Translations under genes and position numbers: made by a program
Shown here: in pieces, positions 1 through 37,678 of the stretch
Numbering within the stretch: the stretch's first letter is position 1
Layout: each line of letters opens with the position of its first letter
From: Escherichia phage vB_EcoM_WFbE185
Length of the DNA: 64,000 nt
Sequence record: MK373778.1
Direction: 5' to 3' (one strand)
Notes under the pieces: generated by a model
Databases searched by the model: none
What the model was told of the DNA's origin: nothing
The model's input: the letters and a program-made list of their open reading frames with translations, nothing else

Positions 1-741
1 GATGACGAAGAAAAATACCGTCACGGCGTATTTGATATGCGTGGTTCTAACGTATTTGCCGTAACAAGAATTATAAGAACAAATGTTGGCTCTATTACTT
101 CAATGGATGGTAATGCAACTTATCCATGGTTCACTGATTTCCTTTTAGGAATGGCTGGTGTTTCAGGTGGTATGGGTAGTAATTGTGGTAAATTCTACGG
201 TCCGAACGCTTTTGGCGCTGACCTCGGGTATTATTCTCAATTAGTATCTTATATGGGTATGCTTCAAGATATGATTGCTCCTCTTCCAGATTTTTGGTTT
301 AACTCTGCAAACGAGCAATTAAAAGTAATGGGTAACTTTAGACAGAAAGATGTCATTATCGTTGAATCGTATGTTCGCTCTTATATCGAGACCCATAAGA
401 TGGTAGGAAATACAGTAGGGTACGGTCAGGTCGGTCCTCGTGATTCATGGTCTATTTCTGAACGTTATGATAATCCAGACCATAATTTGGTCGGACGTCG
501 AGTTGGTGAAGATCCTGCAACTAAACAAGGCGCATATAACAACCGATGGGTTAAAGATTATGCAACTGCATTAGCTAAAGAGCTTAATGGACAAATTCTT
601 GCTAAACATCAAGGTATGATGTTACCGGGTGGCGTCACTGTTGATGGTGTTCGATTAATTGAAGAAGCTCGTTTAGAGAAAGAAGCTTTACGAGAAGAGT
701 TATATTTACTGGACCCTCCTGCAGGTATTTTGGTAGGTTAA
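1..741 (+). CDS. 13: neck protein gp13, C-terminal part (5' end lies upstream of the window)
   Basis: Open frame runs from base 1 to stop at 739-741 and sits immediately upstream of gp14; assignment by synteny, not by recalled sequence. Confidence 0.65.
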
Positions 742-742
742 T

Positions 743-1507
743 ATGGCAACTTATGATAAAAATCTTTTCGCCAAGCTAGAAAATCGTGGTGGGTATTCTC
801 AGACAAATGAGACTGAAATCCTCAATCCATTTGTCAATTTTAATAATTATGAGAATAGTCAGACATTAGCCGACGTTCTAGTGGCAGAAAGCATACAGAT
901 GCGCGGTATTGAATGTTTTTATGTTCCACGTGAATATGTTGCCGTGGACCTTATCTTTGGTGAGGACCTTAAAAATAAATTTACTAAAGCATGGAAATTT
1001 GCTGCATATCTGAACTCTTTTGAAGGTTATGAAGGAGCGAAATCGTTCTTCAGCAACTTCGGAATGCAAGTTCAAGACGAAGTTACATTATCTATTAACC
1101 CGGGTCTTTTCAAACACCAGGTCAACAATCAGGAGCCTAAGGAAGGTGATTTAATATACTTCCCAATGGACAACAGTTTGTTTGAGATTAACTGGGTTGA
1201 ACCATATGACCCATTCTATCAAGTAGGTAAAAATGCGATTCGTAAAATTACCGCAGGCAAGTTTATTTACTCTGGCGAAGAAATCAATCCGGTGCTTCAG
1301 AAAAATGAAGGTATCAATATACCTGAATTTAGTGACTTGGAACTTAACCCTGTTAGAAATCTTGACGGTATCCATGACATTAATATCGATGAGTATTCTG
1401 AAGTTGAGCAAATCAATTCAGAGGCAAGTGAATACGTTGAGCCGTATGTAGTAGTTAACAACCGTGGTAGACAAAATTCACCATTTGACGATGGGTTTAT
1501 GAATTAA
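743..1507 (+). CDS. 14: neck protein gp14
   Basis: 254 aa (T4 gp14 recalled as ~256 aa); position between 13 and 15. Confidence 0.8.
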
Positions 1508-1556
1508 TAAATAGATAAGATAAAGCAAACACCGGTCGAAAGGCCGGTTAGGAGAA

Positions 1557-2381
1557 ATGATGTTTGGTTATTTTTACAACTCGTCGTTCAGGCGATATAT
1601 CACAATGATGGGCGATTTGTTTTCAAATATCCAAGTTAACCGTCAATTGTCTACAGGCAATAAATTAATTAGAGTTCCTATTACGTATGCATCTAAAGAG
1701 CACTTTATGATGAAACTTAATAAATGGACCTCTATAAACTCACAAGAAGATGTGGCTAAAGTCGAAACTATTCTACCACGTATAAATCTCCAAATGGTAG
1801 ATTTCGTTTATAACCCAACGTTTAAAACGAATATATTGAATAACTCTCTTTTGAGTAAATCGACTAAGGATATTGTAGACCAATACAACCCATCACCAAT
1901 TAAAATGATTTTTGAACTGAGCATCTTTACTCGTTATGAAGATGATATGTTCCAAATCGTTGAGCAAATTATTCCATATTTTCAGCCGCATTTTAATACG
2001 ACTATGATTGAGCAATATGGGCAGGATATTCCATTTGAAAGGGATATTAAAGTCGTATGGATGGCAGCAGCAATGGATGAACAAATAGACGGTGATAATT
2101 TATCTCGTCGACGTTTAGAGTGGTCATTAACATTTGAAGTAAATGGATGGATGTATCCTCCGGTAGGCGCAGCTGAAGGCCTTATTAAAACGACTTATCT
2201 TGATTTTCATGCTAATGAACGAGACCTTCAAACAGCCGCCAGTGTTTTTGAATCAGTTGATACAGAAATTAAACCGAGAGACGTTGAAGCACAAGATTGG
2301 AATGGCGAAGTTGAACAAACTTATACTCATGATATTCCAATCCCGACTCCACCAACCCCTCCTGGTCCTAGAAAACAATAA
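1557..2381 (+). CDS. 15: tail sheath stabilizer / tail completion protein gp15
   Basis: N-terminus MMFGYFYNSSFRRY... matches recalled T4 gp15; 274 aa; synteny. Confidence 0.85.
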   Translation: MMFGYFYNSSFRRYITMMGDLFSNIQVNRQLSTGNKLIRVPITYASKEHFMMKLNKWTSINSQEDVAKVETILPRINLQMVDFVYNPTFKTNILNNSLLSKSTKDIVDQYNPSPIKMIFELSIFTRYEDDMFQIVEQIIPYFQPHFNTTMIEQYGQDIPFERDIKVVWMAAAMDEQIDGDNLSRRRLEWSLTFEVNGWMYPPVGAAEGLIKTTYLDFHANERDLQTAASVFESVDTEIKPRDVEAQDWNGEVEQTYTHDIPIPTPPTPPGPRKQ

Positions 2382-4707
<2,326 letters not shown>

Positions 4708-4734
4708 AAATAAAGCAAATTAAGAGGAATTAAA

Positions 4735-6717
4735 ATGTCACTTCTCTCTCCGGGCGTTGAGCTCAAAGAAACTACCGTACAGAGTACTGTAGTTAATAAC
4801 TCCACTGGTACTGCTGCCCTGGCTGGAAAATTCCAATGGGGACCTGCATTCCAGATTAAACAAATCACTGATGAAGTTGCATTAGTTGATATGTTTGGTA
4901 CTCCTAATACGGATACAGCAGATTATTTCATGTCTGCTATGAACTTCCTTCAATATGGTAATGACCTTCGTGTTGTACGCGCAGTTGACCGTGATACTGC
5001 TAAGAACTCATCTCCTGTAGCAGGCAATATTGAATTCACAATCTCTGCTGCTGGTAGTAACTATGCAGTTGGTGATAAAATTATCGTTAAGTATTTGACC
5101 GAAACTGTTGAAGCAGATGGTTATGTCACTTCGGTTGATGTCGATGGTAAAATTCTTAACATTTATATCCCAACCGGTAAAATTATTGCTCGTGCAAAAG
5201 AAATTAATGAATATCCGGCATTGGGTTCTAACTGGACCGCCGAAGTTGCCAGTTCTTCTTCTGGTCTCTCTGGCGTTATTACAATTGGTTCTATCGTAAC
5301 CGATTCGGGTATTCTGTTAACTGAAGTTGAAACTTCTGAAGAAGCTATTACTTCTCTAACTTTCCAAGAATCTATTAAAAAATATGGTGTCCCAGGTGTA
5401 GTTGCTCTTTATCCTGGTGAACTTGGCGACCAGCTCGAAATTGAAATCGTATCTAAAGCGGACTATGACAAAGGTGCTTCAGCCCAGTTAAAAATTTATC
5501 CTGATGGTGGTACTCGTGCATCTACTGCTAAAGCAATCTTTGGGTATGGCCCACAAACTGATGACCAATATGCAATTATCGTTCGTCGTAACGATGCTGT
5601 AGTTCAGAGCGTAATTCTTTCTACTAAACGCGGTGAACGCGATATTTATGGTAGTAATATCTTTATTGATGATTTCTTTGCTAAAGGCGCAAGCAATTAT
5701 ATTTTCGCTACTGCACAAGGTTGGCCAAAAGGTTTCTCTGGCGTAATCAAACTGGGTGGTGGCTTATCATCCAATGAAACGGTTGACGCTGGTGATTTAA
5801 TGGAAGCTTGGGATTTGTTTGCCGACCGCGAATCTGTTAATGCGCAGTTGTTTATTGCCGGTTCTTGTGCAGGTGAATCTTTAGAAGTTGCTTCTACAGT
5901 TCAGAAACATGTTGTAGCAATTGGTGATTCTCGCCAAGATTGCTTGGTTCTTTGCTCACCGCCACGTGCAACTATAGTTGGTATTCCTGTTAATCGTGCA
6001 GTTGATAATCTGGTTGATTGGCGTACTGCGTCAGGAACTTACACTGATAATAACTTTAATGTAAGTTCTACTTACGCGGCTATTGACGGTAACTATAAAT
6101 ATCAATATGACAAATATAATGATGTGAATCGTTGGGTTCCATTAGCTGCTGATATTGCTGGTCTTTGTGCTCGCACAGACAATATTTCTCAGCCTTGGAT
6201 GTCTCCTGCTGGTTATAACCGTGGACAAATTCTTAACGTTATTAAGCTTGCAATTGAAACTCGTCAACCACAGCGTGATCGTTTGTATCAGGAAGCTATT
6301 AACCCTGTTACTGGTACCGGTGGTGATGGGTATGTTCTGTACGGTGATAAAACTGCCACTTCTGTTCCTTCACCATTTGACCGTATTAACGTTCGTCGTT
6401 TGTTCAATATGGTTAAAACGAACATTGGTTCAGCATCCAAATATCGCCTGTTTGAATTGAACAACGCATTCACCCGTTCTTCTTTCCGTACAGAGACTTC
6501 TCAATATCTACAGGGTATTAAAGCTCTCGGTGGTGTATATAACTTTAAAGTTGTTTGTGATACTACCAATAACACCCCAGCAGTTATCGACCGTAATGAA
6601 TTTGTAGCTACTTTCTACTTACAACCTGCCCGCTCGATAAATTATATTACGTTGAACTTTGTAGCAACAGCAACTGGTGCCGATTTCGACGAACTAATTG
6701 GTGCTGTAGGTGGCTAA
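4735..6717 (+). CDS. 18: tail sheath protein gp18
   Basis: 660 aa; N-terminus MSLLSPGVELKETTVQSTVVNNSTGTAALAGKFQWGPAFQIKQ near-identical to recalled T4 gp18; SD AAGAGGA. Confidence 0.95.
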   Translation: MSLLSPGVELKETTVQSTVVNNSTGTAALAGKFQWGPAFQIKQITDEVALVDMFGTPNTDTADYFMSAMNFLQYGNDLRVVRAVDRDTAKNSSPVAGNIEFTISAAGSNYAVGDKIIVKYLTETVEADGYVTSVDVDGKILNIYIPTGKIIARAKEINEYPALGSNWTAEVASSSSGLSGVITIGSIVTDSGILLTEVETSEEAITSLTFQESIKKYGVPGVVALYPGELGDQLEIEIVSKADYDKGASAQLKIYPDGGTRASTAKAIFGYGPQTDDQYAIIVRRNDAVVQSVILSTKRGERDIYGSNIFIDDFFAKGASNYIFATAQGWPKGFSGVIKLGGGLSSNETVDAGDLMEAWDLFADRESVNAQLFIAGSCAGESLEVASTVQKHVVAIGDSRQDCLVLCSPPRATIVGIPVNRAVDNLVDWRTASGTYTDNNFNVSSTYAAIDGNYKYQYDKYNDVNRWVPLAADIAGLCARTDNISQPWMSPAGYNRGQILNVIKLAIETRQPQRDRLYQEAINPVTGTGGDGYVLYGDKTATSVPSPFDRINVRRLFNMVKTNIGSASKYRLFELNNAFTRSSFRTETSQYLQGIKALGGVYNFKVVCDTTNNTPAVIDRNEFVATFYLQPARSINYITLNFVATATGADFDELIGAVGG

Positions 6718-6728
6718 TAAGACGCCTG

Positions 6729-6750
6729 ATGGGCTATTTCGGTAGCCCAT
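6729..6750 (+). terminator. hairpin after gene 18
   Basis: 8-bp stem ATGGGCTA / TAGCCCAT with loop TTTCGG, followed by an A/T-rich tract. Confidence 0.5.
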
Positions 6751-6757
6751 ATAAATA
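6750..6757 (+). promoter_or_regulatory. late promoter (TATAAATA) for gene 19
   Basis: Exact TATAAATA after the gp18 terminator hairpin. Confidence 0.5.
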
Positions 6758-6829
6758 TATTATATCGTTTAAAAATTAATTCTATGGGCATCAGGTTAAT
6801 CCTAAGCCCATATTACTACAGAGGCTAAT

Positions 6830-7321
6830 ATGTTTGTAGATGACGTAACTCGTGCCTTCGAATCAGGTGATTTCGCTCGCCCTAACCTGTTCGAAGTAGA
6901 AATCTCTTATCTTGGGCAAAACTTTAGCTTCCAGTGTCGTGCTACGGCTCTTCCTGCTGCGATCGTTGAAAAGGTTCCTGTTTCTTATATGAACCGTAAA
7001 ATTAACGTGGCCGGTGATCGTACATTCGATGATTGGACTATTACAGTAATGAACGATGATGCTCATAGCATTCGTCAGAAATTTGTTGATTGGCAAGGTA
7101 TTGCAGCAGGACAAGGTAATGAAATTACCGGTGGTAAACCTGCTGAATATAAAAAGTCTGCTATCGTTCGTCAATTTGCTCGTGATGCTAAAACGGTCAC
7201 TAAAGAAGTTGAAATTGTCGGCTTGTGGCCTACTAACGTTGGTGAAGTATCTCTTGATTGGGATTCGAATAACGAGATTGAAACGTTCGAAGTAACTCTT
7301 GCTCTTGATTGGTGGGAATAA
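6830..7321 (+). CDS. 19: tail tube protein gp19
   Basis: 163 aa; MFVDDVTRAFESGDFARPNLF matches recalled T4 gp19. Confidence 0.95.
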   Translation: MFVDDVTRAFESGDFARPNLFEVEISYLGQNFSFQCRATALPAAIVEKVPVSYMNRKINVAGDRTFDDWTITVMNDDAHSIRQKFVDWQGIAAGQGNEITGGKPAEYKKSAIVRQFARDAKTVTKEVEIVGLWPTNVGEVSLDWDSNNEIETFEVTLALDWWE

Positions 7322-7326
7322 TCTGG

Positions 7327-7344
7327 TTGGGGAGAAATCCCCAG
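7327..7344 (+). terminator. hairpin after gene 19
   Basis: Stem GGGGA / TCCCC with GAAA tetraloop. Confidence 0.5.
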
Positions 7345-7369
7345 CTTCCCGTGATGACGGAGAAGTCCA

Positions 7370-7377
7370 TATAAATA
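7370..7377 (+). promoter_or_regulatory. late promoter (TATAAATA) for gene 20
   Basis: Exact TATAAATA 28 nt upstream of the ATG. Confidence 0.6.
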
Positions 7378-7405
7378 TAACTATAATTCCCATTCGGAGA
7401 ATACA

Positions 7406-8977
7406 ATGAAATTTAATATCTTAAGTTTGTTTGCTCCATGGGCAAAAATGGACGAACGTGATTACAAAGACCAAGAAAAAGAAAATTTAGAATCGATCAC
7501 CACACCAAAATTAGACGACGGCGCTAAAGAATACGAAGTATCTGAAAATGAAGCACAGCAAACATATAATGCTATGTTTCAGAGAATGTTCGGTAGCCAA
7601 GAACCAGGGCTCAAATCAACGCGTGAATTAATCGATACGTATCGAAATTTGATGACGAACTATGAAGTGGATAATGCAGTCTCTGAAATAGTTTCGGATG
7701 CTATCGTATATGAAGATGATACAGAAGTCGTTTCTATAAATTTAGACAACACAAAATTTAGTCCAAATATCAAATCAATGATGTTGGATGAATTTAACGA
7801 AGTGTTAAATCATTTATCTTTCCAACGTAAAGGTTCAGATCATTTTAGACGTTGGTATGTGGATTCTCGAATTTTCTTCCATAAAATTATTGACCCTAAA
7901 CGCCCTAAAGAAGGTATTAAAGAGCTTCGTCGTTTAGACCCACGTCAAGTTCAATATGTCCGTGAAGTTATTACAACCACTGAAGCTGGTGTTAAAATAG
8001 TCAAGGGTTATAAAGAATATTTCATTTATGACACATCACACGAATCTTATGCTTGTGATGGTCGCATATATGAAGCGGGCACAAAAATAAAAATCCCTAA
8101 AGCCGCGATTGTTTACGCCCATTCTGGTTTAGTTGATTGTTGTGGTAAAAATATCATTGGTTATTTGCATCGGGCTATTAAGCCAGCGAACCAATTAAAA
8201 CTTCTTGAAGATGCCGTCGTAATTTATCGTATTACTCGTGCTCCCGATCGTCGTGTATGGTACGTTGATACAGGTAATATGCCTTCAAGAAAAGCAGCAG
8301 AACATATGCAACATGTTATGAATACGATGAAAAACCGTATTGCATATGATGCTACTACAGGCAAGATTAAAAACCAACAGCATATTATGTCGATGACCGA
8401 AGATTATTGGTTACAACGACGTGATGGTAAAGCAGTAACAGAAGTTGATACATTACCAGGTGCAGATAATACCGGAAATATGGAAGATGTACGTTGGTTC
8501 CGTAATGCGCTTTATATGGCTTTACGTATTCCTATTACCCGTATTCCAAGTGACCAAGGTGGTATACAGTTTGATGCTGGTACTTCTATTACACGAGATG
8601 AATTATCATTTGGTAAATTTATTCGTGAGCTGCAACATAAATTTGAAGAGATATTCCTAGACCCGCTTAAAACTAATTTAATTCTTAAAGGAATTATTAC
8701 AGAAGATGAGTGGAATGATGAAATAAATAATATTAAGATAAAATTTCATCGGGATAGTTATTTCTCGGAATTAAAGGATGCTGAGATTCTGGAGCGTCGC
8801 ATTAATATGCTTCAGATGGCCGAACCATTTATTGGTAAATATATTTCTCACAGAACAGCTATGAAAGATATTCTTCAGATGTCTGATGAGGAAATTGAAC
8901 AAGAGGCTAAGCAAATTGAAGAAGAGTCGAAAGAGGCTCGTTTCCAAGACCCCGACCAAGAACAAGAGGATTTTTAA
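7406..8977 (+). CDS. 20: portal vertex protein gp20
   Basis: 523 aa; [18 protein letters not shown]... matches recalled T4 gp20. Confidence 0.95.
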
Positions 8978-28681: not shown

Positions 28682-28711
28682 ATAGTATCACACATCCATG
28701 TGTTTGTAAAC
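28682..28711 (-). promoter_or_regulatory. T4-type early promoter
   Basis: Minus strand GTTTAC-N18-TACTAT; the -35 overlaps the alt stop codon. Confidence 0.55.
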
Positions 28712-30798
28712 TATCCTTGGATAAATTTAAACGGAACTGATTCTAAATCCATTAAAGATGCTAACAATTTCAAACCTTTAGGTGCACTAGTTTTTTCTAC
28801 AAATGAGGCAAAAGATACCGGCTCATCTGATTCGATTTCACCCGTCATAGCAACTACCTCGCCTGTTTCCATGAGAACATCACCATCGTAAATGACAGCT
28901 TCGTCCAACTGGTCCGAGGACATGACTTCAGCTTGAATAAATTTAAGGTTGGATTCTAAACCTGCACCAGTGTCAGATGACGCATCTGTAATTTTATTTA
29001 TCTGCAAGAGAATGCCTCTAGGCAAAATAATTTCTTGCTCATTAGGGTGATTACTCAACTGACCCGGATAAATCACGTTAACTTTATGGGCGCCATCAAT
29101 AGCCCATCCAACGTTAACACGGATTTGTTCTGGTGCATGCATAGCTGTTCTTACTTGACTAGGAGAAATAGTAACACCTTCGTCGTTATTGTCAATGTTA
29201 AGCTCTTTGCGAACTTCTTCAGGAGCAAGTCCAAGGGCAACGTTCTCTTTAAACCCACCGAAAATAATAGGAGCTAGTGAAGTGGAAACATAGTTTCTGA
29301 AATAGAATACCTTATTTTTAACCATTGCTTCGTAAATAGGCATTCTGATAGACTGAGCTCTATATAACGTTAGTCCTTCAGGTAAACGGTCTCCATTTAA
29401 AAACGCCGAATCAAGACCATCAATAGCGCGTTTAACTTCATCTTCATCCGCAACATCGTAAAAATCTGGTTTATAACGACCTAACAACATATTATTGATA
29501 TCTGTATATGCAGAAGAGGCATATTCACGAATAGCTCGTTTTTCAGAAACAGAGTATTGTTTAGGGTCCCGATTCATTGTTATATTAAAGGTGCCTCTAG
29601 CCGATTCTCGGGCATAAGTATACATCACATTAGACAAGAACGCTGATTTACGTTGTTTCCAAGTTCTTTCAGATACTTCAGCTAAAACGTCGTCAGGCAG
29701 TTGGAAATTATCACGTCTAAAATCTTCAAACCATTCGTCTTTAATAGAGTCTGCAATTTCATTTGCAGCTTCAACAAAAGCAGCTAATGCTTTAACAGAT
29801 GTTGTTTTTTCGGTTTTAATTTTCTTAGCAAACTTTTCTAAAGTCGGCTTAATAACACCACCATAAGAAACTTCATCAGCAAATTTAAAGGATTCATCAA
29901 TACGATTATAAATCTTATTTTCGATATCAGCAACTAAAGTGCCTTTTGCTGTGGACGACGCTTGGGCTAGTACTATTTCATATGCTTCAGGAAGTAATTC
30001 GGCTGTAGCTGGGCCACTAACTTCTTTAGCAGAATTTTCATATTTCTGGAATAACTCACCTTCTTGTCGGTCCGCTTCTAAAGATTGACTTGCTGCAATA
30101 GCACGACGAGAAATTTTAGTACGAGCAATAACAGGCTTATCTTTACGTTTTTCTTCTACAGCAGCAATAGAACCAGCGATAGCCGTTTCTTTGGTGACCT
30201 TTTCGCCGGTCTTTTTACTAACATAAACTTCGCCAACATCAGAATCTACTTTCGTGTACAACTCTGTGTTAATGTTAGGGATGCCTTTAATATCTTCAAT
30301 GTTGGCATTTTTACGAACCATCATCACATAGGTGTGTTTACCTGTGAATTGATACATTGCCGACAATACTTTAAAACGACCACCGGTTTTAGTAGAAACT
30401 AAACGAGCAAGAAGAGTTTGAAGCTGTTGTCCACGTCCTTTCAATTTCTTGGTAGGGAATCGGAACAGAACTGCATCCATACGAAGAGCTTTAACTTGTT
30501 CATATACTGTATTGAAAATGGTGTTGATTGCATCAATAGGAGCAGGACCAAGGCCATTTTTCAATTCAGCGAGATTACCCTTTTCAGACAGACTCATAAT
30601 AACAACATGAGCGTATTTATCGCCGAGTTTAACTTGTTTTACAGCATCGCCTTCGGAAAGGTAAGAGAATAAACGAACTACAATATTTGTATCGATATCA
30701 CCAATTTTCCAGACTTGTGGAACTTTAGCTTTAGGGTTCAAATTGACGACAGGAAGACTGCCTTCAGATTCAAACACTTCATTTAATTGTTCAGACAT
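28711..30798 (-). CDS. alt: Alt ADP-ribosyltransferase (virion-packaged)
   Basis: 695 aa; ART R-S-E signature (LYRAQS, YVSTSL, EQEII); position upstream of gene 30. Confidence 0.85.
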   Translation of the reverse strand: MSEQLNEVFESEGSLPVVNLNPKAKVPQVWKIGDIDTNIVVRLFSYLSEGDAVKQVKLGDKYAHVVIMSLSEKGNLAELKNGLGPAPIDAINTIFNTVYEQVKALRMDAVLFRFPTKKLKGRGQQLQTLLARLVSTKTGGRFKVLSAMYQFTGKHTYVMMVRKNANIEDIKGIPNINTELYTKVDSDVGEVYVSKKTGEKVTKETAIAGSIAAVEEKRKDKPVIARTKISRRAIAASQSLEADRQEGELFQKYENSAKEVSGPATAELLPEAYEIVLAQASSTAKGTLVADIENKIYNRIDESFKFADEVSYGGVIKPTLEKFAKKIKTEKTTSVKALAAFVEAANEIADSIKDEWFEDFRRDNFQLPDDVLAEVSERTWKQRKSAFLSNVMYTYARESARGTFNITMNRDPKQYSVSEKRAIREYASSAYTDINNMLLGRYKPDFYDVADEDEVKRAIDGLDSAFLNGDRLPEGLTLYRAQSIRMPIYEAMVKNKVFYFRNYVSTSLAPIIFGGFKENVALGLAPEEVRKELNIDNNDEGVTISPSQVRTAMHAPEQIRVNVGWAIDGAHKVNVIYPGQLSNHPNEQEIILPRGILLQINKITDASSDTGAGLESNLKFIQAEVMSSDQLDEAVIYDGDVLMETGEVVAMTGEIESDEPVSFASFVEKTSAPKGLKLLASLMDLESVPFKFIQG

Positions 30799-30839
30799 AG
30801 TGTTTTCCTTTTAGTAATAATTTATATTTATGCCAAAAA

Positions 30840-30853
30840 GAGCCCGAAGGCTC
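30840..30853 (-). terminator. terminator upstream of alt
   Basis: GAGCC-CGAA-GGCTC, then UUUUGG on the minus transcript. Confidence 0.55.
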
Positions 30854-31042
30854 TTAATCCACAATCGGAAGCAAAGTACGATAAACTTCAAAATTAGAGC
30901 CTTTTTCGTACTTATCGAAATTGTCCATAAAAATATGATAGGAATCGTTATTAGGAAAATCTAATATAATCTGAGAGCAAGAGGTGGAAACATCTCCACC
31001 ATCCTTCTTAGCTACAATAACTGTTTCTAAATAAGCTTTCAT
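30854..31042 (-). CDS. hypothetical protein
   Basis: 62 aa from ATG at 31042, overlapping the gene 30 stop (TAATG); terminator hairpin directly after its stop. Confidence 0.4.
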   Translation of the reverse strand: MKAYLETVIVAKKDGGDVSTSCSQIILDFPNNDSYHIFMDNFDKYEKGSNFEVYRTLLPIVD

Positions 31043-32535
31043 TATAAACCTGTCTGGGACCACGGTCCAAATACGTCTTCAAACGAATCCGCTTCTGTTT
31101 TATCAAAACGGAACCCTTTAATAATTGGAAGGAAAATACCTACAGTACCTTCACGGCCTTTAGAATGAACCCAACCATTACATTCACAATCAGCGATACG
31201 TCCAATTAATTTACCTTCACGAGCTTCGGTCATTAATCGTTCACGGTCTAAATCATGACGCTCGTCTAAAGGAATAAGAACCTTTACACCGTCAACTGTT
31301 TTATGAGTTGTATCTTTAAAACCTGAACCACAATCGGTTGTAATACGACGACAACGTGATACGAGTTCGACACCACCTAATTTGTTAGGGTCTTTAGAGT
31401 GTTCATAGTATCCTACAACTTCTAAAGCGATATCAATAACTTCTTTAAATTTAATTAGGTTCTTAGAGCGTTTGTTTTCCCAATATGAATCACGGTTTTT
31501 AAGAATAATACCTTCAAGACCTTGGTCAACATATTTTTTATAAACCACTTTAGCTTCGTCAAGATTACGAACTAACTGATTTTCAATTGGCTCAATTCGC
31601 TTAAAGCCTTCAGCCATATTTTCAAGAGCAGCAAAACGAACATCGTATTTCTGACCTTTAATTTTGCCATCAGAATAGACTTCATCTAAAGGAACATAGT
31701 CCCAGGCTTGAAGAACAATACCTTCAGCTTCTTTAGGAGAAATAGTCCCTTGAAGAGATTTATTTGCTAAACCGTTTGAAGTGCTACGGTCCGCAACTTG
31801 TACTTCTTCGGATTCTTCATTATCACCAAATAAGAACGACAGGTCATTTCCTGAGCTCACAGCCTTTTTAATATCAAATGAATGGTAAACTAATTCACCG
31901 TCGATTAAAACCCCATTAGGGTGTCTTTCACGAGCTTCTTTAGTCATTTCCATTAGTTCATCCGCTAATAGAGTAAGACCATGATATTCGTTGCCGGCAC
32001 GAGAAAAGAATTGAACACCATCATCGCGAACTTCAGCGAAACAACGAGCACCATCGGCTTTTAATTGAGCAAATGCAGGCCATTTAATATTTTTAGTAAT
32101 CAATTTCTCATCATATGCAGATGCTAACATCTGTGGTTGCAATTGAATAAGTCCAGGCCACACCTTATTCGCGATAGACACTGAAGCACCTACTTCAAGG
32201 TCGCGCATCATTACACGACGAAGGACTTCTACATCATCAGGTTTACCGTCAGCGATATAACCCATGAGCTCTTTAATTGCAGCATTACCAGTGAGTTTAC
32301 GAGTGGCTAATGTGAACTCAATAAAATCCAACATGTCATCTAATTCAAGAAGACCATACGCTTGAGACCTTTCACCTGGTCCTGGCCATTTCTTAATATA
32401 ATACTGGATACCACGTGCATATGTTAAACGATACACACGTTCAAGTAATTTGTTGTCCTTATTTTTCTTAAGGATTTCCTGTTTTGTTTTAGTAGAACCG
32501 ATCGCAGCTATTTGGTTTAAAATATCTAAAATCAT
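31042..32535 (-). CDS. 30: ATP-dependent DNA ligase gp30
   Basis: 497 aa; adenylation motif KADGAR; MILDILNQIAAIGSTK... matches recalled T4 ligase. Confidence 0.95.
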   Translation of the reverse strand: MILDILNQIAAIGSTKTKQEILKKNKDNKLLERVYRLTYARGIQYYIKKWPGPGERSQAYGLLELDDMLDFIEFTLATRKLTGNAAIKELMGYIADGKPDDVEVLRRVMMRDLEVGASVSIANKVWPGLIQLQPQMLASAYDEKLITKNIKWPAFAQLKADGARCFAEVRDDGVQFFSRAGNEYHGLTLLADELMEMTKEARERHPNGVLIDGELVYHSFDIKKAVSSGNDLSFLFGDNEESEEVQVADRSTSNGLANKSLQGTISPKEAEGIVLQAWDYVPLDEVYSDGKIKGQKYDVRFAALENMAEGFKRIEPIENQLVRNLDEAKVVYKKYVDQGLEGIILKNRDSYWENKRSKNLIKFKEVIDIALEVVGYYEHSKDPNKLGGVELVSRCRRITTDCGSGFKDTTHKTVDGVKVLIPLDERHDLDRERLMTEAREGKLIGRIADCECNGWVHSKGREGTVGIFLPIIKGFRFDKTEADSFEDVFGPWSQTGL

Positions 32536-32801
32536 TTGATGTCCTCGATTTTGGTTACGGTTCTATTATAAGCCACTTCATCTAGAAGCGATTTCAGCGT
32601 TTTCTGATAAGTTGTAATCCATTTACCGAGTCCTTCAACATAGTATTCTGAAATGTAGATGAACCCTTGTTCAACACACTCTTTAAATATTTCTGTGTCT
32701 TTTACTGAACGAAACAATGGCCAGTCTCGAAAGAACATGTTAACGTGACCGTAGTCACGTGTGGTATTTTTGCCATCTGTAATATCATGAACTACAAACA
32801 T
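32532..32801 (-). CDS. hypothetical protein (T4 30.1 position)
   Basis: 89-aa ORF; synteny. Confidence 0.45.
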   Translation of the reverse strand: MFVVHDITDGKNTTRDYGHVNMFFRDWPLFRSVKDTEIFKECVEQGFIYISEYYVEGLGKWITTYQKTLKSLLDEVAYNRTVTKIEDIK

Positions 32802-32810
32802 AATTAACCC

Positions 32811-33635
32811 TTAACAATTTATAGACCAAGTCCATTTAGACGAATCTAAAGGAAAGTTTTGAATCGTCCACCACGGCTGCATATCAGTTGGTCCTGGGGT
32901 TCGCCAGGTATATGGAGTACGTGTTGTCGAGGGGCCACCAATTTGATTAGGCCATGCACCTGGACTTGTTGCACCAGATTCTTTAAGCAAATCCGCCAAT
33001 CGTTTTAAAAGGTCTTCACGATCTGAATCTGAATTATTCTTAGGCAGAACCAAACGAGATTCAATATCATCCCACGTGTGTACACGTTGTGCAGTACGAG
33101 GAATGGCATCACGTTCACCACGAGCCAACCAATAAATCGGTACATTAAGAATTTCTGCCGCATGGTCACAGTGATGAGCTAAATCGTCAACGTAACAAAT
33201 CACGTTATATTTTGTTTTAGCTAGTTCGAATAATTGTTCCTTTGAAGAATCATGACCACACATCATTACTTCAGAGAAAGCGCCTGGGAACAAAGCATTC
33301 AAATTAAATTGTCTATTCAATCGAGCATCAATTGAATCACCTAGCGCCGTCACGGCTACAAAATTATAGTCTTCTTTTAGTTTATTGATAACTCGAAGAG
33401 CATCAGAATAAGGCGCTAAGTAACGAATAAAATCAGAGCTATTATATTTTTCTATTAATTGTTTACCAAGGTTATCGTCGGTATTGAACAGTTTACCAGG
33501 AGAAATAAATTTTTCGTCCTGAATCATTTTTAAAATATGTTCTAATGGAAGGTTATATTTTTGGGCAAAATAAGGAAGTCCAGATTGCCAGCTTAAACAT
33601 ACACCATCAATATCAGTCAAAATAGTAGGCTTCAT
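32811..33635 (-). CDS. HAD-superfamily-like hydrolase (T4 30.2 position)
   Basis: 274 aa; N-terminal DIDGV (HAD motif I DxDG[T/V]) and later YVDD (motif IV-like). Confidence 0.5.
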   Translation of the reverse strand: MKPTILTDIDGVCLSWQSGLPYFAQKYNLPLEHILKMIQDEKFISPGKLFNTDDNLGKQLIEKYNSSDFIRYLAPYSDALRVINKLKEDYNFVAVTALGDSIDARLNRQFNLNALFPGAFSEVMMCGHDSSKEQLFELAKTKYNVICYVDDLAHHCDHAAEILNVPIYWLARGERDAIPRTAQRVHTWDDIESRLVLPKNNSDSDREDLLKRLADLLKESGATSPGAWPNQIGGPSTTRTPYTWRTPGPTDMQPWWTIQNFPLDSSKWTWSINC

Positions 33636-34099
33636 AAAGAGTCTCTTAGTAGGTTTAACACGTCAATAAATTCATCTTCAGTTAGTATTGTATCATCTTT
33701 TGTTAGGTGGCTGGCCATGCTGTGCTTCAAAATTTTTCCTTTAGAGGCTTGTAAGGCATCACGAAACCCCTTGTTTTGGATCGCGGCTTCAAAATATGCA
33801 TTTGTGTATAATTCTTTCCACGCTTCGGAGTATCTTGAAAATGGAACTCCTAACCAGAAGAGAGTCCCACGGTCCTGAGCTCTTGCGTAAGACCTTCCAG
33901 CTTGCTGTGCAGCCAATCCAGACAACCCAAATATACGTCTTTGTTGTTCAACATTTTTCACCTTACATCCTTGGAGAAATCCTTCAAGACCTCCGAATTG
34001 AATACCATCCATAACAAAAGGCCATTGAGCAAAGTTACTTAATGCACATGACGGCCATTTGAAATTACTTCTTATTTCTAATTCAGACATCTTTAACAC
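33632..34099 (-). CDS. YbiA/DUF1768-like protein (T4 30.3 position)
   Basis: 155 aa; SNF-x-WPF and FRDAL-type motifs typical of the YbiA family, as recalled. Confidence 0.5.
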   Translation of the reverse strand: MLKMSELEIRSNFKWPSCALSNFAQWPFVMDGIQFGGLEGFLQGCKVKNVEQQRRIFGLSGLAAQQAGRSYARAQDRGTLFWLGVPFSRYSEAWKELYTNAYFEAAIQNKGFRDALQASKGKILKHSMASHLTKDDTILTEDEFIDVLNLLRDSL

Positions 34100-34301
34100 T
34101 TATAATTTCAACATCGGCCCAATGTCCGTATCCAGGTATACGGTCTTCGATAGATAAATTTCTGTCATTTTTAGGCATTTTAATTGACGTAACGTATGGT
34201 TCTAAACGGTTTTCCGCGTAATATGGAAAAACGTCGGTTACACGATAAGTAACTTCAATCATTTCCATACCAAACAATTTCTGGATTAATTTATTCAACA
34301 T
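34083..34301 (-). CDS. hypothetical protein
   Basis: 72-aa ORF in an operon-like array. Confidence 0.4.
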   Translation of the reverse strand: MLNKLIQKLFGMEMIEVTYRVTDVFPYYAENRLEPYVTSIKMPKNDRNLSIEDRIPGYGHWADVEIISVKDV

Positions 34302-34488
34302 GTTTCAACCCTTTAATAGGAGATAACTCTTTACCCATACGTATGTCAGAAGTCCCATCAACCCATTGAACAGCATACGCTTCATTGATAATTCCAGCGG
34401 CAGTTTTAAATTCGTTGAGAACTTTAAAAATCATCCCAGGGATTCCAACACCTTTTAATTGGACTGTTTGTGCTATTAAAAATTTCAT
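34291..34488 (-). CDS. hypothetical protein
   Basis: 65-aa ORF overlapping its neighbours. Confidence 0.4.
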   Translation of the reverse strand: MKFLIAQTVQLKGVGIPGMIFKVLNEFKTAAGIINEAYAVQWVDGTSDIRMGKELSPIKGLKHVE

Positions 34489-34542
34489 ATTTTTCCACTT
34501 ACTAAAGAAATCATTATACTCTAATCCGTCCTTGGATGTACA

Positions 34543-35157
34543 CTACTTAATGAAATTAATTTCTACCGGATGAACAACAGGTTGAGCAGTGATATATTGA
34601 GTAATTGCTTTCATGACTAGAGCTTCAGAACCAGGATTTTTCTCAACGAATTCACGTGCTAGGTTATGAGCTTCGAGTTCACTCAATAAACCGGAACGCT
34701 GGCATCCACGGTCTTGAGTACCCTGTTCAGATAAAAGGACTACTACATATTTTTCATCGTCGTAGGGCTTAGCCAGTTGAGCAAATGTTCCTTTACTTCC
34801 AAAAGGAGAGTTATGTCGCCACATCACGCCGTGTGGAGTTTCAACCTTCGTATATTCGTGCGGTCCATTTTTCTTAGTTTCTTGATGTGGAACTTCATAG
34901 ACCTTAGGGTTAGGACATTCAATAAAATGCTCATCTAAATCGGTCGAGAATATTAAAGTAAAACAATTACTGAATTTACCAACACCGGCCTGATAAATTT
35001 TACCTTCAGAAGTTCTAATTTCACAAACTGAGCCGGCATCAGTAACTTCTAAAACTTCAAAAGGCTCAATAAGGTCATATGAGAACATGTTTTTAAGGCG
35101 TGGAGTAATATCCCCATTTTTAAAATTCATTTTATAAAAAGTATTAACTTTAAACAT
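34543..35157 (-). CDS. hypothetical protein
   Basis: 204 aa from ATG at 35157 with SD GAGG upstream; the longer track ORF begins with TTG inside a hairpin. Confidence 0.5.
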   Translation of the reverse strand: MFKVNTFYKMNFKNGDITPRLKNMFSYDLIEPFEVLEVTDAGSVCEIRTSEGKIYQAGVGKFSNCFTLIFSTDLDEHFIECPNPKVYEVPHQETKKNGPHEYTKVETPHGVMWRHNSPFGSKGTFAQLAKPYDDEKYVVVLLSEQGTQDRGCQRSGLLSELEAHNLAREFVEKNPGSEALVMKAITQYITAQPVVHPVEINFIK

Positions 35158-35169
35158 AATTTCCTCAGT

Positions 35170-35185
35170 GGGAGCCGAAGCTCCC
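35170..35185 (-). terminator. hairpin between the 30.7-like and 30.6-like ORFs
   Basis: GGGAGC-CGAA-GCTCCC; no clear U-run, so it may be a stabilising or processing hairpin rather than a terminator. Confidence 0.35.
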
Positions 35186-35192
35186 AATTAAT

Positions 35193-35558
35193 TTAGATAT
35201 CAAATTCGTTAAGAACTACATCAAAGATTGCTTCGAGATGTTCAGGTTTAGCTCGGTTACTCAGGATATGACGAATCCAAGTTTTAACCAGAAGTTTACG
35301 ATTAACACCATTCCAGCAAGGATGAGTACCTAAATCACGTTGACGGAAGTCATCATCTAAAGCGATTTTGAAATTAGAACCTTCCATCGTGATTGAAACC
35401 GTGATGCCATTTTCAAATCGCATATAAACGTAATTAGGAGTCATGCACTGTTCGATTTCACAAACTGTACCGTTTTCGTGTTTCCATAAGCAAATAACTT
35501 CAGAAGAACCAGCAATACCGTTAGAAACATATTTACGTTCGAAGTTGATGTAGTTCAT
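35193..35558 (-). CDS. hypothetical protein (T4 30.7-like position)
   Basis: 121 aa; SD GGAGA; early promoter upstream. Confidence 0.5.
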   Translation of the reverse strand: MNYINFERKYVSNGIAGSSEVICLWKHENGTVCEIEQCMTPNYVYMRFENGITVSITMEGSNFKIALDDDFRQRDLGTHPCWNGVNRKLLVKTWIRHILSNRAKPEHLEAIFDVVLNEFDI

Positions 35559-35599
35559 TTTATTCTCCAGATGTTTAAGTTGTTTGTTGGTACAGGTCT

Positions 35600-35628
35600 A
35601 TAATAACATAACCTGTACCAAAGTAAAC
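35600..35628 (-). promoter_or_regulatory. T4-type early promoter with flanking inverted repeat
   Basis: Minus strand GTTTAC-N17-TATTAT; 9-bp inverted repeat (35589-35597 / 35611-35619) brackets the -10. Confidence 0.55.
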
Positions 35629-35632
35629 TGTT

Positions 35633-36001
35633 TTATGCAACTTTAATCCAATTGTCTAAATTTAAAACACCTTTGGCTTTCATTTTTTCGATCAGGTTAT
35701 CTGCTGTAATGCGTCCATTTTGATACCATGTAACATCTTCAGAGTAACCAGTTTCTTCGTCAACATATGTTTCTGAACGAATTTTACCGGTAATAATAGT
35801 TTTTAATTCGTATGTGTCACCTGTGAAAAAGTTTGCTAACACAATTTTCCAAGAGAAATCATCAGAAGGACCTTCAGGGGTCATACAACCTACGAACTCA
35901 AATTGCTCTTTGTATAACATCCACTGGAATTCTTTAATTTCGATAGCTTTATAACCGTCGTGGTCTTTACATTTGATGTATGAGTTCAGATTGATTTTCA
36001 T
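35633..36001 (-). CDS. hypothetical protein (T4 30.8-like position)
   Basis: 122 aa; early promoter upstream. Confidence 0.5.
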   Translation of the reverse strand: MKINLNSYIKCKDHDGYKAIEIKEFQWMLYKEQFEFVGCMTPEGPSDDFSWKIVLANFFTGDTYELKTIITGKIRSETYVDEETGYSEDVTWYQNGRITADNLIEKMKAKGVLNLDNWIKVA

Positions 36002-36043
36002 TTTGTTCTCCGGTTTGTTTTATTGATTAGGTGGTACAAGTCT

Positions 36044-36072
36044 ATAGTAACACATCCTACAGGAGAGTAAAC
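36044..36072 (-). promoter_or_regulatory. T4-type early promoter
   Basis: Minus strand GTTTAC-N17-TGTGTTACTATAGAC upstream of the ORF at 35633-36001. Confidence 0.55.
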
Positions 36073-36108
36073 ATCTTTTTAAACTTTTTCTGCCCTAAAC
36101 GCACAAAA

Positions 36109-36126
36109 GGGAGACCGAAGTCTCCC
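36109..36126 (-). terminator. intrinsic terminator after the small basic ORF
   Basis: Minus strand GGGAGAC-UUCG-GUCUCCC followed by UUUUG. Confidence 0.65.
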
Positions 36127-36131
36127 TAAAA

Positions 36132-36311
36132 TTATGCAACAACCTTTCCAAAACGAGAAGCATCATCTCGAAGAACTGCACGTGCTCTGCGCATGATCTT
36201 CTCAACTGTTTGATTAATACGAGAGTTCGACCCACGCTTGTATCCAGCGCGTTTAGAGGTACCATCAACTTTCTTTTCAACTGCTTTCTTTGCTTTAGCT
36301 TGTTTTGCCAT
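36132..36311 (-). CDS. small highly basic protein
   Basis: 59-aa ORF, below the track cutoff, found by hand: MAKQAKAKKAVEKKVDGTSKRAGYKRGSNSRINQ...; SD AAGAG; terminator hairpin 6 nt after its stop. Confidence 0.5.
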   Translation of the reverse strand: MAKQAKAKKAVEKKVDGTSKRAGYKRGSNSRINQTVEKIMRRARAVLRDDASRFGKVVA

Positions 36312-36523
36312 TATAAATTCTCTTTAAATGAAAATGCAGGACTTATTGACATTGCCTGCGCAAGCCCTCAAGGGGAACATAGGTTTTGGATATTTAACGA
36401 CAGGATAACCATAAACCCGTCATCATACCAACCACGACTTAGACAGATAACCTTTTTCTGACGCGTGATAGTACAAAATACATTCAAGAGGTACACCGTA
36501 AAACTGCCGTGGTCTTAAAACTA

Positions 36524-36543
36524 TAATGATTCGCAAATCATTA
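36524..36543. repeat. perfect 20-bp palindrome TAATGATT-CGCA-AATCATTA in a non-coding region
   Basis: 8-bp perfect inverted arms with a 4-nt centre, read directly from the sequence; function unknown. Confidence 0.6.
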
Positions 36544-36606
36544 ATCAGACAGTTCGACGGCTCCTCGATTTTCTAGCCGCACTTAAGGTAGCGAATCACC
36601 TAAAAC

Positions 36607-36855
36607 TTATTTAAGGGTAATAACAAAATGACGTACTGCTTTACGAGCTGCAGAAGCCAAAGGCTTAGCATATTTCAGTTCATCTTTTGCTTCCAGTTCA
36701 GAGGCCAAAGCCGCCTGTACCGGGTTCAGACGTTTGAAATAATGCAGGATTTCCAGTGCTTCGGCTTCAACATCAATCGACGCGCCGTAGTTTTCGTGAC
36801 CGTTATTCCATGCGTTTCGTTGCAGTTCAAGAGCGTGTTGTAATTGTTTAATCAT
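36607..36855 (-). CDS. rIII: RIII lysis-inhibition accessory protein
   Basis: 82 aa; position next to gene 31. Confidence 0.85.
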   Translation of the reverse strand: MIKQLQHALELQRNAWNNGHENYGASIDVEAEALEILHYFKRLNPVQAALASELEAKDELKYAKPLASAARKAVRHFVITLK

Positions 36856-36971
36856 TTTAAATTCTCAATTCGAGATAATATTTAGTAGCCACGTTCGTCT
36901 GAATTTCACCTTCTTTCGACAAGTCTCTCAGTTGTAGGCTACCGCTTAGAAGAGTGTTCTCTTCATATAGT

Positions 36972-36979
36972 TATTTATA
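36972..36979 (-). promoter_or_regulatory. late promoter (TATAAATA) upstream of rIII
   Basis: Reverse-complement TATAAATA in the 31-rIII intergenic region, followed by hairpin GAAGAG-AACA-CUCUUC. Confidence 0.4.
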
Positions 36980-37312
36980 TCACTTATAAAGACACGGAAT
37001 AGCTTTATAGTGGCATGTTACGAATTTCTGTTTAATTTCTTTAGGTTGTTTAAGTCCCAAAGCCACAAATGGATGTGGAACATTTCGAATTTGTCCAACT
37101 GGTAGTGGAGTCAAATCACCGACTTCAACAAAACCTTCAGGAACATCAGGACCTACAGAATGAACTACACATAGTTCAGGAACTTCACCTTGAACACGTT
37201 TACCAATCACAAGTCCTGATTCGGTAACTTCTTCATCACCTGCTTGAGCGGGTTCAGAAACCAGAATGACATATTCACCAACAGCACGAATTGGGAGTTG
37301 TACTTCAGACAT
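36980..37312 (-). CDS. 31: gp31 GroES-like co-chaperonin for capsid folding
   Basis: 110 aa; [29 protein letters not shown]... matches recalled T4 gp31. Confidence 0.95.
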
Positions 37313-37342
37313 CTTATTTCCTTGTTGTTTGACGATAGATTA

Positions 37343-37367
37343 ATAATACCATACTATTCGTAAAGCA
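37343..37367 (-). promoter_or_regulatory. middle promoter (MotA box + -10) for gene 31
   Basis: Minus strand reads TGCTTTA, 12 nt, TATTAT, then SD AGGAA. Confidence 0.5.
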
Positions 37368-37369
37368 TA

Positions 37370-37678
37370 TTACATAAGAAGCAAACGTTCTACCGGAGTA
37401 CCATCAACCGAAATTACTTTATCAAGGCGGAAAGAACGCCACTGACCTAACTTGGTATCGAATGCTCGAACTGATTCACGAGGTTCAGAACGAACTTCTG
37501 TTGCCGGATTGTTATTTTCATATTTGACTTCAAGTTCATCGCGCGAAGCAAACATAGTGCGTACCTCACCGTTAGCCTTTTCAAATACAACACAATGAAC
37601 GCCTACAGACAGAATAGTTTTAATACGTTCACGAAGAACCATAGTCTCTTGTTCAGTTAAAATCATATTATTCACCAC
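37370..37678 (-). CDS. hypothetical protein (T4 31.1 position)
   Basis: 102 aa; synteny. Confidence 0.5.
   Translation of the reverse strand: MVNNMILTEQETMVLRERIKTILSVGVHCVVFEKANGEVRTMFASRDELEVKYENNNPATEVRSEPRESVRAFDTKLGQWRSFRLDKVISVDGTPVERLLLM

Follow-up and report, generated by a model that had tools for sequence, protein, structure and literature searches.

What do the two adjacent genes lying close to the DNA ligase gene of this phage encode, and how far does their position bear on what they do? The window -- the whole stretch of 64,000 nucleotides of Escherichia phage vB_EcoM_WFbE185 (MK373778.1) that was analysed -- had originally been predicted to carry here two uncharacterised enzymes, a HAD-type phosphatase or nucleotidase and a protein resembling the YbiA/DUF1768 N-glycosidases, both next to DNA ligase and both consistent with roles in nucleotide pool editing or DNA modification. 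The best overall explanation, which we consider quite probable, is that one of them is gene 30.3, encoding the DNA ADP-ribosylglycohydrolase AdfN, and that the other is gene 30.2, encoding a capped, NT5C-like HAD phosphomonoesterase whose likely substrate is a (deoxy)nucleoside monophosphate or a sugar phosphate.

Over positions 32500-34400 the window DNA is 99.7% identical to RB69-like T4-type phages (Mosigvirus), with the Mosigvirus member APCEc01 among the best matches; judged from this sequence, the source phage is itself an RB69-like T4-type phage of Mosigvirus. All of the genes of the stretch -- alt, alt.1, 30, 30.1, 30.2, 30.3, 30.4 and 30.5 -- are encoded by the minus strand, and T4 and RB69 show the same gene order (Table 1). 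The locus is an ordinary one for a T4-type genome and is annotated in reference phages. Both ORFs, 32811-33635 and 33632-34099, were found on the minus strand and are real rather than chance ORFs, since a single-sequence search with gp30.2 gave 99 homologues at E <= 1e-36 and gp30.3 matches PF08010 (Phage_30_3) at 232 bits against a cutoff of 36, over profile positions 1-138 of 138. The span 33632-34099 is indeed that of the longest 30.3 ORF, which opens with GTG at 34099, but translation almost certainly begins at the ATG at 34090, giving a protein of 152 aa (MSELEI...), since the annotated T4 start matches it, with an identical 8-nt overlap onto the 30.4 stop. The stop codon of 30.3 is in turn overlapped by the start codon of 30.2, as ATGA. 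The ligase gene is near, as had been predicted, but not directly adjacent, the small gene 30.1 separating it from 30.2. According to the literature, the block 30.4-30.3-30.2-30.1-30 is early. Scanning 30500-37500 for promoters and terminators gave 25 promoter-like sites, with 19.9 expected, and 4 terminator-like ones, with 3.8 expected; no operon structure is claimed from the scan.

Table 1. Positions of the genes and gene parts discussed, in window coordinates
Feature	Position	Strand	Evidence
Gene 30.3 = adfN, NADAR-fold DNA (guanine) ADP-ribosylglycohydrolase, 152 aa	33632-34090	-	PF08010 E 2e-69; T4 orthologue
Gene 30.2, whole ORF, 274 aa	32811-33635	-	ORF; homologues
Gene 30.2 catalytic part, residues 1-195, HAD Rossmannoid core and helical C1 cap	33051-33635	-	Motifs, AF2, Foldseek
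Gene 30.2 C-terminal tail, residues 196-274 and stop	32811-33050	-	AF2 pLDDT, homologue comparison
Gene 30.1, DUF3045, 89 aa, between 30.2 and the ligase gene	32532-32801	-	Pfam PF11243 E 1.4e-26; same position in T4/RB69
Gene 30, ATP-dependent DNA ligase, 497 aa	31042-32535	-	Pfam DNA_ligase_A_M E 3e-26
Gene alt, packaged ADP-ribosyltransferase, 695 aa (context)	28711-30798	-	Pfam ADPrib_exo_Tox E 5.5e-28; same position in T4/RB69
Gene 30.4, 72 aa (context)	34083-34301	-	ORF; T4 annotation

The case of gp30.3 is already known from T4. The name AdfN was given to the T4 protein by Johannesman et al. (2025, Nat Commun; PMC11825919), who found it to be needed for resistance to DarTG1: deletion of the gene sensitises T4, and AdfN-T4 supplied in trans is sufficient to rescue RB69. 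In vitro, AdfN takes ADP-ribose off DarT1-modified DNA; the substitutions E36A and K43A impair it, and its full activity requires a C-terminal helix which has been lost in RB69 (PMC11825919). T4 gp30.3 hydrolyses guanosine-ADP-ribose and not thymidine-ADP-ribose (Toxins 2024, PMC11125620), and in the same paper the residue in the last strand is given as His in phage NADARs, Glu in YbiA and Asp in DarG1-type proteins. The description of both enzymes as uncharacterised thus holds for gp30.2, for which literature searches under gp30.2 and 30.2 turned up no functional study and only coincidences of number, but not for gp30.3, whose T4 orthologue is AdfN (PMC11825919, PMC11125620).

The window gp30.3 is identical to that of T4 at 146 of 152 residues (96%, same length), and 97% identical to that of RB69 over the latter's 137 residues. 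It shares with T4 AdfN the catalytic E36 and K43, the clade-specific His123, the place between 30.4 and 30.2 and the overlapping start and stop; it differs from it by six substitutions, being an RB69-type but intact allele that is known here from its sequence. Unlike the RB69 gene, it does not carry the inactivating extra T that shortens the RB69 protein, and that would fall between positions 33681 and 33680. The C-terminal helix, at residues 141-154 of the model (counted along the 155-aa ORF that begins at the GTG), is intact in the full 152 aa protein. Searched with a profile, 1.84 billion representatives yielded 1364 relatives of gp30.3; in a set of 90 diverse relatives, made up of the window protein and 89 from that search, E36 (codon 33983-33985) is invariant, while K43 (33962-33964) and H123 (33722-33724) are at least 90% conserved. 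From the 96% identity and orthology to the T4 protein, we infer that the window gp30.3 has AdfN activity. It would cleave the N-glycosidic bond joining ADP-ribose to guanine in DNA, and would thereby reverse the modification of replicating phage DNA by DarT1, the DarTG1 toxin -- counter-defence by the undoing of a DNA modification, and not the nucleotide pool editing that had been suggested. With a full-length allele in which E36, K43 and H123 are retained, the source phage should be resistant to DarTG1, unlike RB69.

By fold and family, gp30.3 is a member of the NADAR superfamily, in the phage gp30.3/AdfN clade, with the YbiA/NADAR fold. Searching the PDB with gp30.3, by sequence or by profile, gave no match, so that a comparison of folds was needed. 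The AF2 model (pLDDT 88.4) has as its best Foldseek match in the PDB E. coli YbiA (2b3w; E 1.2e-4, TM 0.68/0.63), and the only other meaningful fold matches there are the NADAR proteins of Geobacter lovleyi (8bat) and Phytophthora (8bau). In the Pfam scan gp30.3 had no PF08719 (NADAR/DUF1768) match at E <= 1; among the 90 proteins of the clade, all match PF08010 and 12 also match PF08719. Neither PADLOC nor NCBIfam scans were informative for gp30.3 or gp30.2. One NADAR-clade protein, distinct from the fusions discussed below, is fused to KptA/Tpt1. With E. coli YbiA and the DarG1-type NADARs (2b3w, 8bat, 8bau), gp30.3 has in common the alpha+beta YbiA fold, at TM values of up to 0.68, and, according to the published work, an in vitro activity on guanine-ADP-ribose (PMC11125620, PMC11825919), though its sequence identity to them is only about 15%. 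A further difference is that no DarT toxin is linked to it, which makes it an orphan, and in uninfected cells T4 AdfN cannot serve as an antitoxin. The predicted resemblance to YbiA/DUF1768 was therefore right as to fold and superfamily. Membership in the YbiA subfamily, or in PF08719, was considered and rejected, there being no PF08719 match and a His in place of YbiA's Glu in the last strand; the Pfam support for gp30.3 comes through PF08010 instead.

Another reading would have gp30.3 work as an N-glycosidase on small molecules in the manner of YbiA, with riboflavin intermediates or modified nucleotides as possible substrates in place of DNA. This seems highly improbable, even with E. coli YbiA as its best structural match and with the argument of Iyer et al. 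(2022) that soluble ADP-ribose derivatives may be the preferred substrates of phage NADARs. Direct assays have T4 gp30.3 freeing guanine in DNA of its ADP-ribose, T4 without gene 30.3 becomes sensitive to DarTG1, and the clade has a His where the YbiA proteins have their defining Glu; the published T4 experiments largely refute the small-molecule reading.

The 274 aa product of gene 30.2 begins with MKPTILTDIDGVCLSW and contains the two sequences that had originally suggested a HAD enzyme, the motif I DIDGV (residues 8-12) and the motif IV-like YVDD (residues 148-151). Both are borne out by the invariant catalytic residues, the geometry of the AF2 model and the fold matches. In 96 homologues D8, D10, K132, D150 and D151 are invariant and T96 is at least 90% conserved (codons at 33612-33614 for D8, 33606-33608 for D10, 33348-33350 for T96, 33240-33242 for K132 and 33183-33188 for D150/D151); with all of the catalytic residues conserved, a pseudoenzyme is ruled out. 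The model has a pLDDT above 90 across residues 1-195. In it, motif I (D8-I-D10-G-V12) directly follows the strand at 4-7, the motif II T96 ends the strand at 91-96, the motif III K132 lies just before the helix at 133-142, and the motif IV D150/D151 end the strand at 145-150, while six helices (residues 16-86) inserted between motifs I and II make up a C1 cap. Foldseek found 123 PDB matches at E <= 1e-3, of which the 50 listed are HAD-fold proteins. The best is the cdN 5'(3')-deoxyribonucleotidase 2jao (E 1.2e-8), followed by a Staphylococcus deoxyribonucleotidase-like protein, and several further cdN and mdN entries are among the leaders; close behind come HADs that are not nucleotidases -- cis-epoxysuccinate hydrolase, YfnB, NANP and haloacid dehalogenases. 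In a library of viral structures the first matches are uncharacterised T4-like proteins, and after them phage HADs often labelled 5'-nucleotidase. Comparison of the AF2 models by Foldseek thus supports the fold that was predicted for each of the two proteins, and gp30.2 can be called a HAD phosphatase with high confidence.

Pfam was less forthcoming here than for gp30.3. No HAD model passes its gathering score with gp30.2 (HAD_2 reaches 16 bits against a cutoff of 23.8), and over the 96 family members the best HAD E-values are 9.6e-5 for Hydrolase and 0.0076 for HAD_2; the best NCBIfam match of gp30.2 has an E-value of 0.09. These sub-threshold scores are attributed to divergence and do not exclude the HAD superfamily. 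A profile built from a trimmed alignment of gp30.2 and run against 5.8 billion proteins found 152 proteins, all of the same phage family, and none of the 120 listed carries a precomputed HAD-type Pfam domain that might have served as a bridge to cellular HADs. The family, PHROG 420 ("unknown function"), is thus large and confined to phage-like sequences. Beyond the catalytic part, gp30.2 has a tail with one predicted helix (203-219) and then a disordered stretch rich in Pro and Trp, with pLDDT below 50 from residue 222. The tail is 96% identical to that of RB69, while from T4 it has diverged in both protein and DNA. A frameshifted form of the T4 tail is ruled out, since the divergence is present in the DNA itself, starting near codon 175. 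Tails are variable and optional in the family: 33 of the 96 homologues have one of 15 aa or less, and the long ones contain 11.4% Pro and 3.6% Trp, as against 4.2% and 1.3% in the core.

Since other HAD enzymes score nearly as well, the fold does not fix the substrate of gp30.2, and the nearest named family has to be approached through several weak lines of evidence. The best PDB match by sequence is mouse cdN (2jao, E 0.11), in which NMDGVLADFESGL aligns with the DIDGVCLSWQSGL that follows motif I in gp30.2; in the sequence and profile searches cdN appears at E 0.1-0.8, amid noise from an amidase, Med22 and clathrin-assembly proteins. NT5C (PF06941) is the most frequent weak Pfam match in the gp30.2 family, found in 23 of 96 members with a best E of 0.002, though not in the window protein. 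A distant full-length homologue (L079; hhalign probability 99.6% to gp30.2) reaches 24.0 bits to NT5C against a cutoff of 24.8 and has mdN as its only PDB matches. Set against two genuine NT5C domains, however, the gp30.2 profile gives an hhalign probability of only 53%, and in the fold matches other HAD subfamilies come within about tenfold of the cdN and mdN scores. NT5C is probably the nearest named family, and gp30.2 is best described as NT5C-like, not demonstrably as an NT5C member. It shares with the NT5C enzymes cdN and mdN (2jao, 2i7d, 1mh9) the HAD core, the helical C1 cap, the four catalytic motifs and the motif D-x-D-G-V-x-x-x-[F/W]-x-S-G-L; it is only 16-18% identical to them, and their chains of 190-200 residues leave no room for its optional Pro/Trp-rich C-terminal tail.

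From its fold and invariant catalytic residues, gp30.2 would be a catalytically competent, Mg2+-dependent phosphomonoesterase of the HAD superfamily, and its helical C1 cap is of a kind that normally holds these enzymes to small substrates and keeps macromolecules out. The NT5C 5'(3')-deoxyribonucleotidases being probably its nearest relatives, the most likely reaction of gp30.2 is the dephosphorylation of (deoxy)nucleoside monophosphates or of a related sugar phosphate. Since host dNMPs are recycled by T4-type phages, a phosphatase acting on dNMPs in general would seem to work against the phage, unless its specificity were narrow. The original description as a phosphatase or nucleotidase of unknown substrate is still a fair one.

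The neighbours of gp30.2, surveyed in 73 T4-like viral contigs with a homologue, offer two further readings, one through the ligase and one through AdfN. The ligase gene lies downstream on the same strand in 71 of the 73: within 100 nt in 26, beyond an insert of 100-700 nt in 41 (with gene 30.1 detected in 24 of these) and farther away in 4. Gene 30.2 is thus a near-core T4-like gene, positionally tied to the ligase just downstream, and the tie extends to the distant Shewanella phage Thanatos-1 (HAD -> ligase, without a NADAR) and to Acinetobacter phages, one of which has the order NADAR -> HAD -> ligase. From this one could suppose that gp30.2 clears 3'-phosphates or similar blocking groups from nicks, leaving them fit for sealing by gp30. 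The cdN and mdN enzymes also hydrolyse nucleotide 3'-phosphates, which fits, as does the occurrence of PNKP-type phosphatase domains among the lower viral Foldseek matches (ranks 23-45). Such an end-healing role is nonetheless improbable. PNKP-type HAD domains, which act on polynucleotide ends, have no cap, while the gp30.2 model has a full helical one; as caps exclude macromolecules, this counts against action on nicks. These phages, moreover, already encode PseT, the polynucleotide kinase/3'-phosphatase, in the same early region, near cd. PseT has its HAD chemistry in common with gp30.2, but it is a PNKP-type HAD fused to a kinase (PF25109 HAD_PNKP plus AAA_33), whereas gp30.2 is capped and stands alone, and no PNKP Pfam match was found for gp30.2 or for the family members scanned. 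The order of the block is also conserved by descent, which makes adjacency alone weak evidence.

In the other reading AdfN depends in vivo on a T-even-specific accessory factor, and gp30.2 is that factor, the two forming a module: gp30.2 might, for example, dephosphorylate AMP or ribose-5-phosphate (after Nudix cleavage), or ADP-ribose-1''-phosphate, so that de-ADP-ribosylation keeps turning over or the released ADP-ribose is made harmless. T4 AdfN is active in vitro but unable to detoxify DarT1 in uninfected cells, and both papers raise a possible accessory factor (PMC11825919, PMC11125620); non-T-even phages are incompletely rescued by AdfN (PMC11825919), and gp30.2 is present in RB69, where AdfN-T4 does function in trans. 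Besides the ATGA overlap of the two genes, a gp30.3-type NADAR gene lies upstream of gp30.2 in 36 of the 73 loci, abutting it in 19. Among the 90 gp30.3-type NADAR proteins, two, from other organisms, are NADAR-NT5C fusions with their domains in the N-to-C order of 30.3-30.2, and a third is fused to a small HAD domain. In one of the two fusions (P0211) the NT5C domain scores 61 bits and has the motif DMDNVLVDFQSGL, and its contig also encodes an ADP-ribosylglycohydrolase, a second NADAR and RtcB; a coupling of ADP-ribosylglycohydrolases to a HAD 5'-nucleotidase has been described as well (Iyer et al. 2022). Against this, gp30.2 is much more widespread than an adjoining NADAR: the other 37 loci have none within 4 kb, in several T4-like genomes without one at the gp30.2 site it is found about 55-60 kb away, and a gp30.2-like HAD occurs within 3 kb in only 13 of 80 additional phage NADAR loci, ruling out a general NADAR-HAD linkage among phages. 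NADAR is thus a mobile accessory neighbour, upstream of 30.2 in about half of the lineages. The fusion partner, too, is a true NT5C that matches the gp30.2 profile weakly (the hhalign value above), and in the second fusion (P0221) motif I is degenerate and the nucleophile Asp lost. Reversal of guanine ADP-ribosylation chemically requires no phosphatase, and more than 100 other T-even genes are alternative candidates for the missing factor. Given the distribution, the weak similarity of gp30.2 to the fused NT5C domains and the chemistry, a helper role is a long shot, unlikely as things stand.

The preferred reading remains that of AdfN beside a capped, NT5C-like phosphomonoesterase. For gene 30.3, an intact adfN, predicting resistance to DarTG1 where the laboratory strain RB69 is sensitive, helps in the prediction of host range and brings no new biology. 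Gene 30.2 belongs to the small group of near-universal early genes of T4-like phages that show a clear enzymatic fold but have no assigned function, and knowledge of its substrate would close a gap in the well-mapped nucleotide and NAD/ADP-ribose metabolism of T4. Should gp30.2 turn out to be a helper of AdfN after all, a near-core gene would gain a role in the biochemistry of ADP-ribose and NAD conflicts, one enzyme stripping ADP-ribose from DNA and the other disposing of the phosphorylated products.

The adfN gene (30.3) of this phage is of the RB69 type, as is its neighbor 30.2, the encoded proteins being 97% identical for gp30.3 and 96% for gp30.2. RB69 itself carries an extra T, at the spot corresponding to 33,680-33,681 of the window within gene 30.3 (minus strand), which shifts the frame and truncates its AdfN; this insertion is absent here, so the window adfN is intact. 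In T4, an internal ORF in an alternative frame of 30.3 is annotated as 30.3'; its equivalent here is interrupted by an in-frame stop at codon 35, and 30.3' is thus not conserved as a coding sequence in this phage. The positions of this frame and of the other features discussed are collected in the table.

Features in the gene 30.2-30.7 region
Feature	Position	Strand	Remarks
gp30.2 C-terminal tail	32814-33050	minus	
30.3' equivalent	33727-33954	minus	alternative frame inside 30.3; annotated in T4
214-aa ORF	34543-35187	minus	listed from TTG; PHROG 17531, E 3e-146
Terminator-like hairpin	35163-35186		within the coordinates of the 214-aa ORF

The C-terminal tail of gp30.2 is an optional and hypervariable element of its family, with 15 or fewer amino acids in 33 of the 96 homologs and at least 50 in 51 of them, and in the window phage and T4 the sequences diverge already at the DNA level. 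It is enriched in proline (11.4%) and tryptophan (3.6%), PW dipeptides are common in it, and the structural model gives it a single helix followed by disorder; it may serve as an interaction motif. One 302 AA homolog of gp30.2, P0017, also includes the DUF3045 domain of gp30.1. It is the product of a 30.2-30.1 fusion or else of read-through, and possibly a sign that the two neighboring genes are linked in function.

Between the equivalents of 30.5 and 30.7 lies the 214-aa ORF, for which no Pfam match was found. T4 has the 95-aa gene 30.6 in this position instead, so the slot holds a variable insert.

The gp30.3 clade reaches far past stand-alone phage proteins, as seen from clade representatives (P0286, P0160 and others) in which a gp30.3-type NADAR is fused to a KptA/Tpt1 RNA 2'-phosphotransferase, BspA-type LRR repeats, ASCH or HD_4. 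The metagenomic contig ERR9710099_15244 (L084) carries, within positions 1-8851, genes for DUF1810, an ADP-ribosylglycohydrolase, a 344-aa NADAR, a gp30.3-like fragment and RtcB, along with a NADAR-NT5C fusion protein and a low-molecular-weight phosphatase; this neighborhood looks like a gene cluster for ADP-ribose processing and RNA repair. Among the T4-like IMG/VR contigs, several genomes with no NADAR adjoining 30.2 have a gp30.3-type NADAR about 55-60 kb away (example contigs compared: L121, L124, L130 and L131 versus L027, L077, L020 and L039). The NADAR gene has therefore been relocated or independently gained within the Straboviridae.
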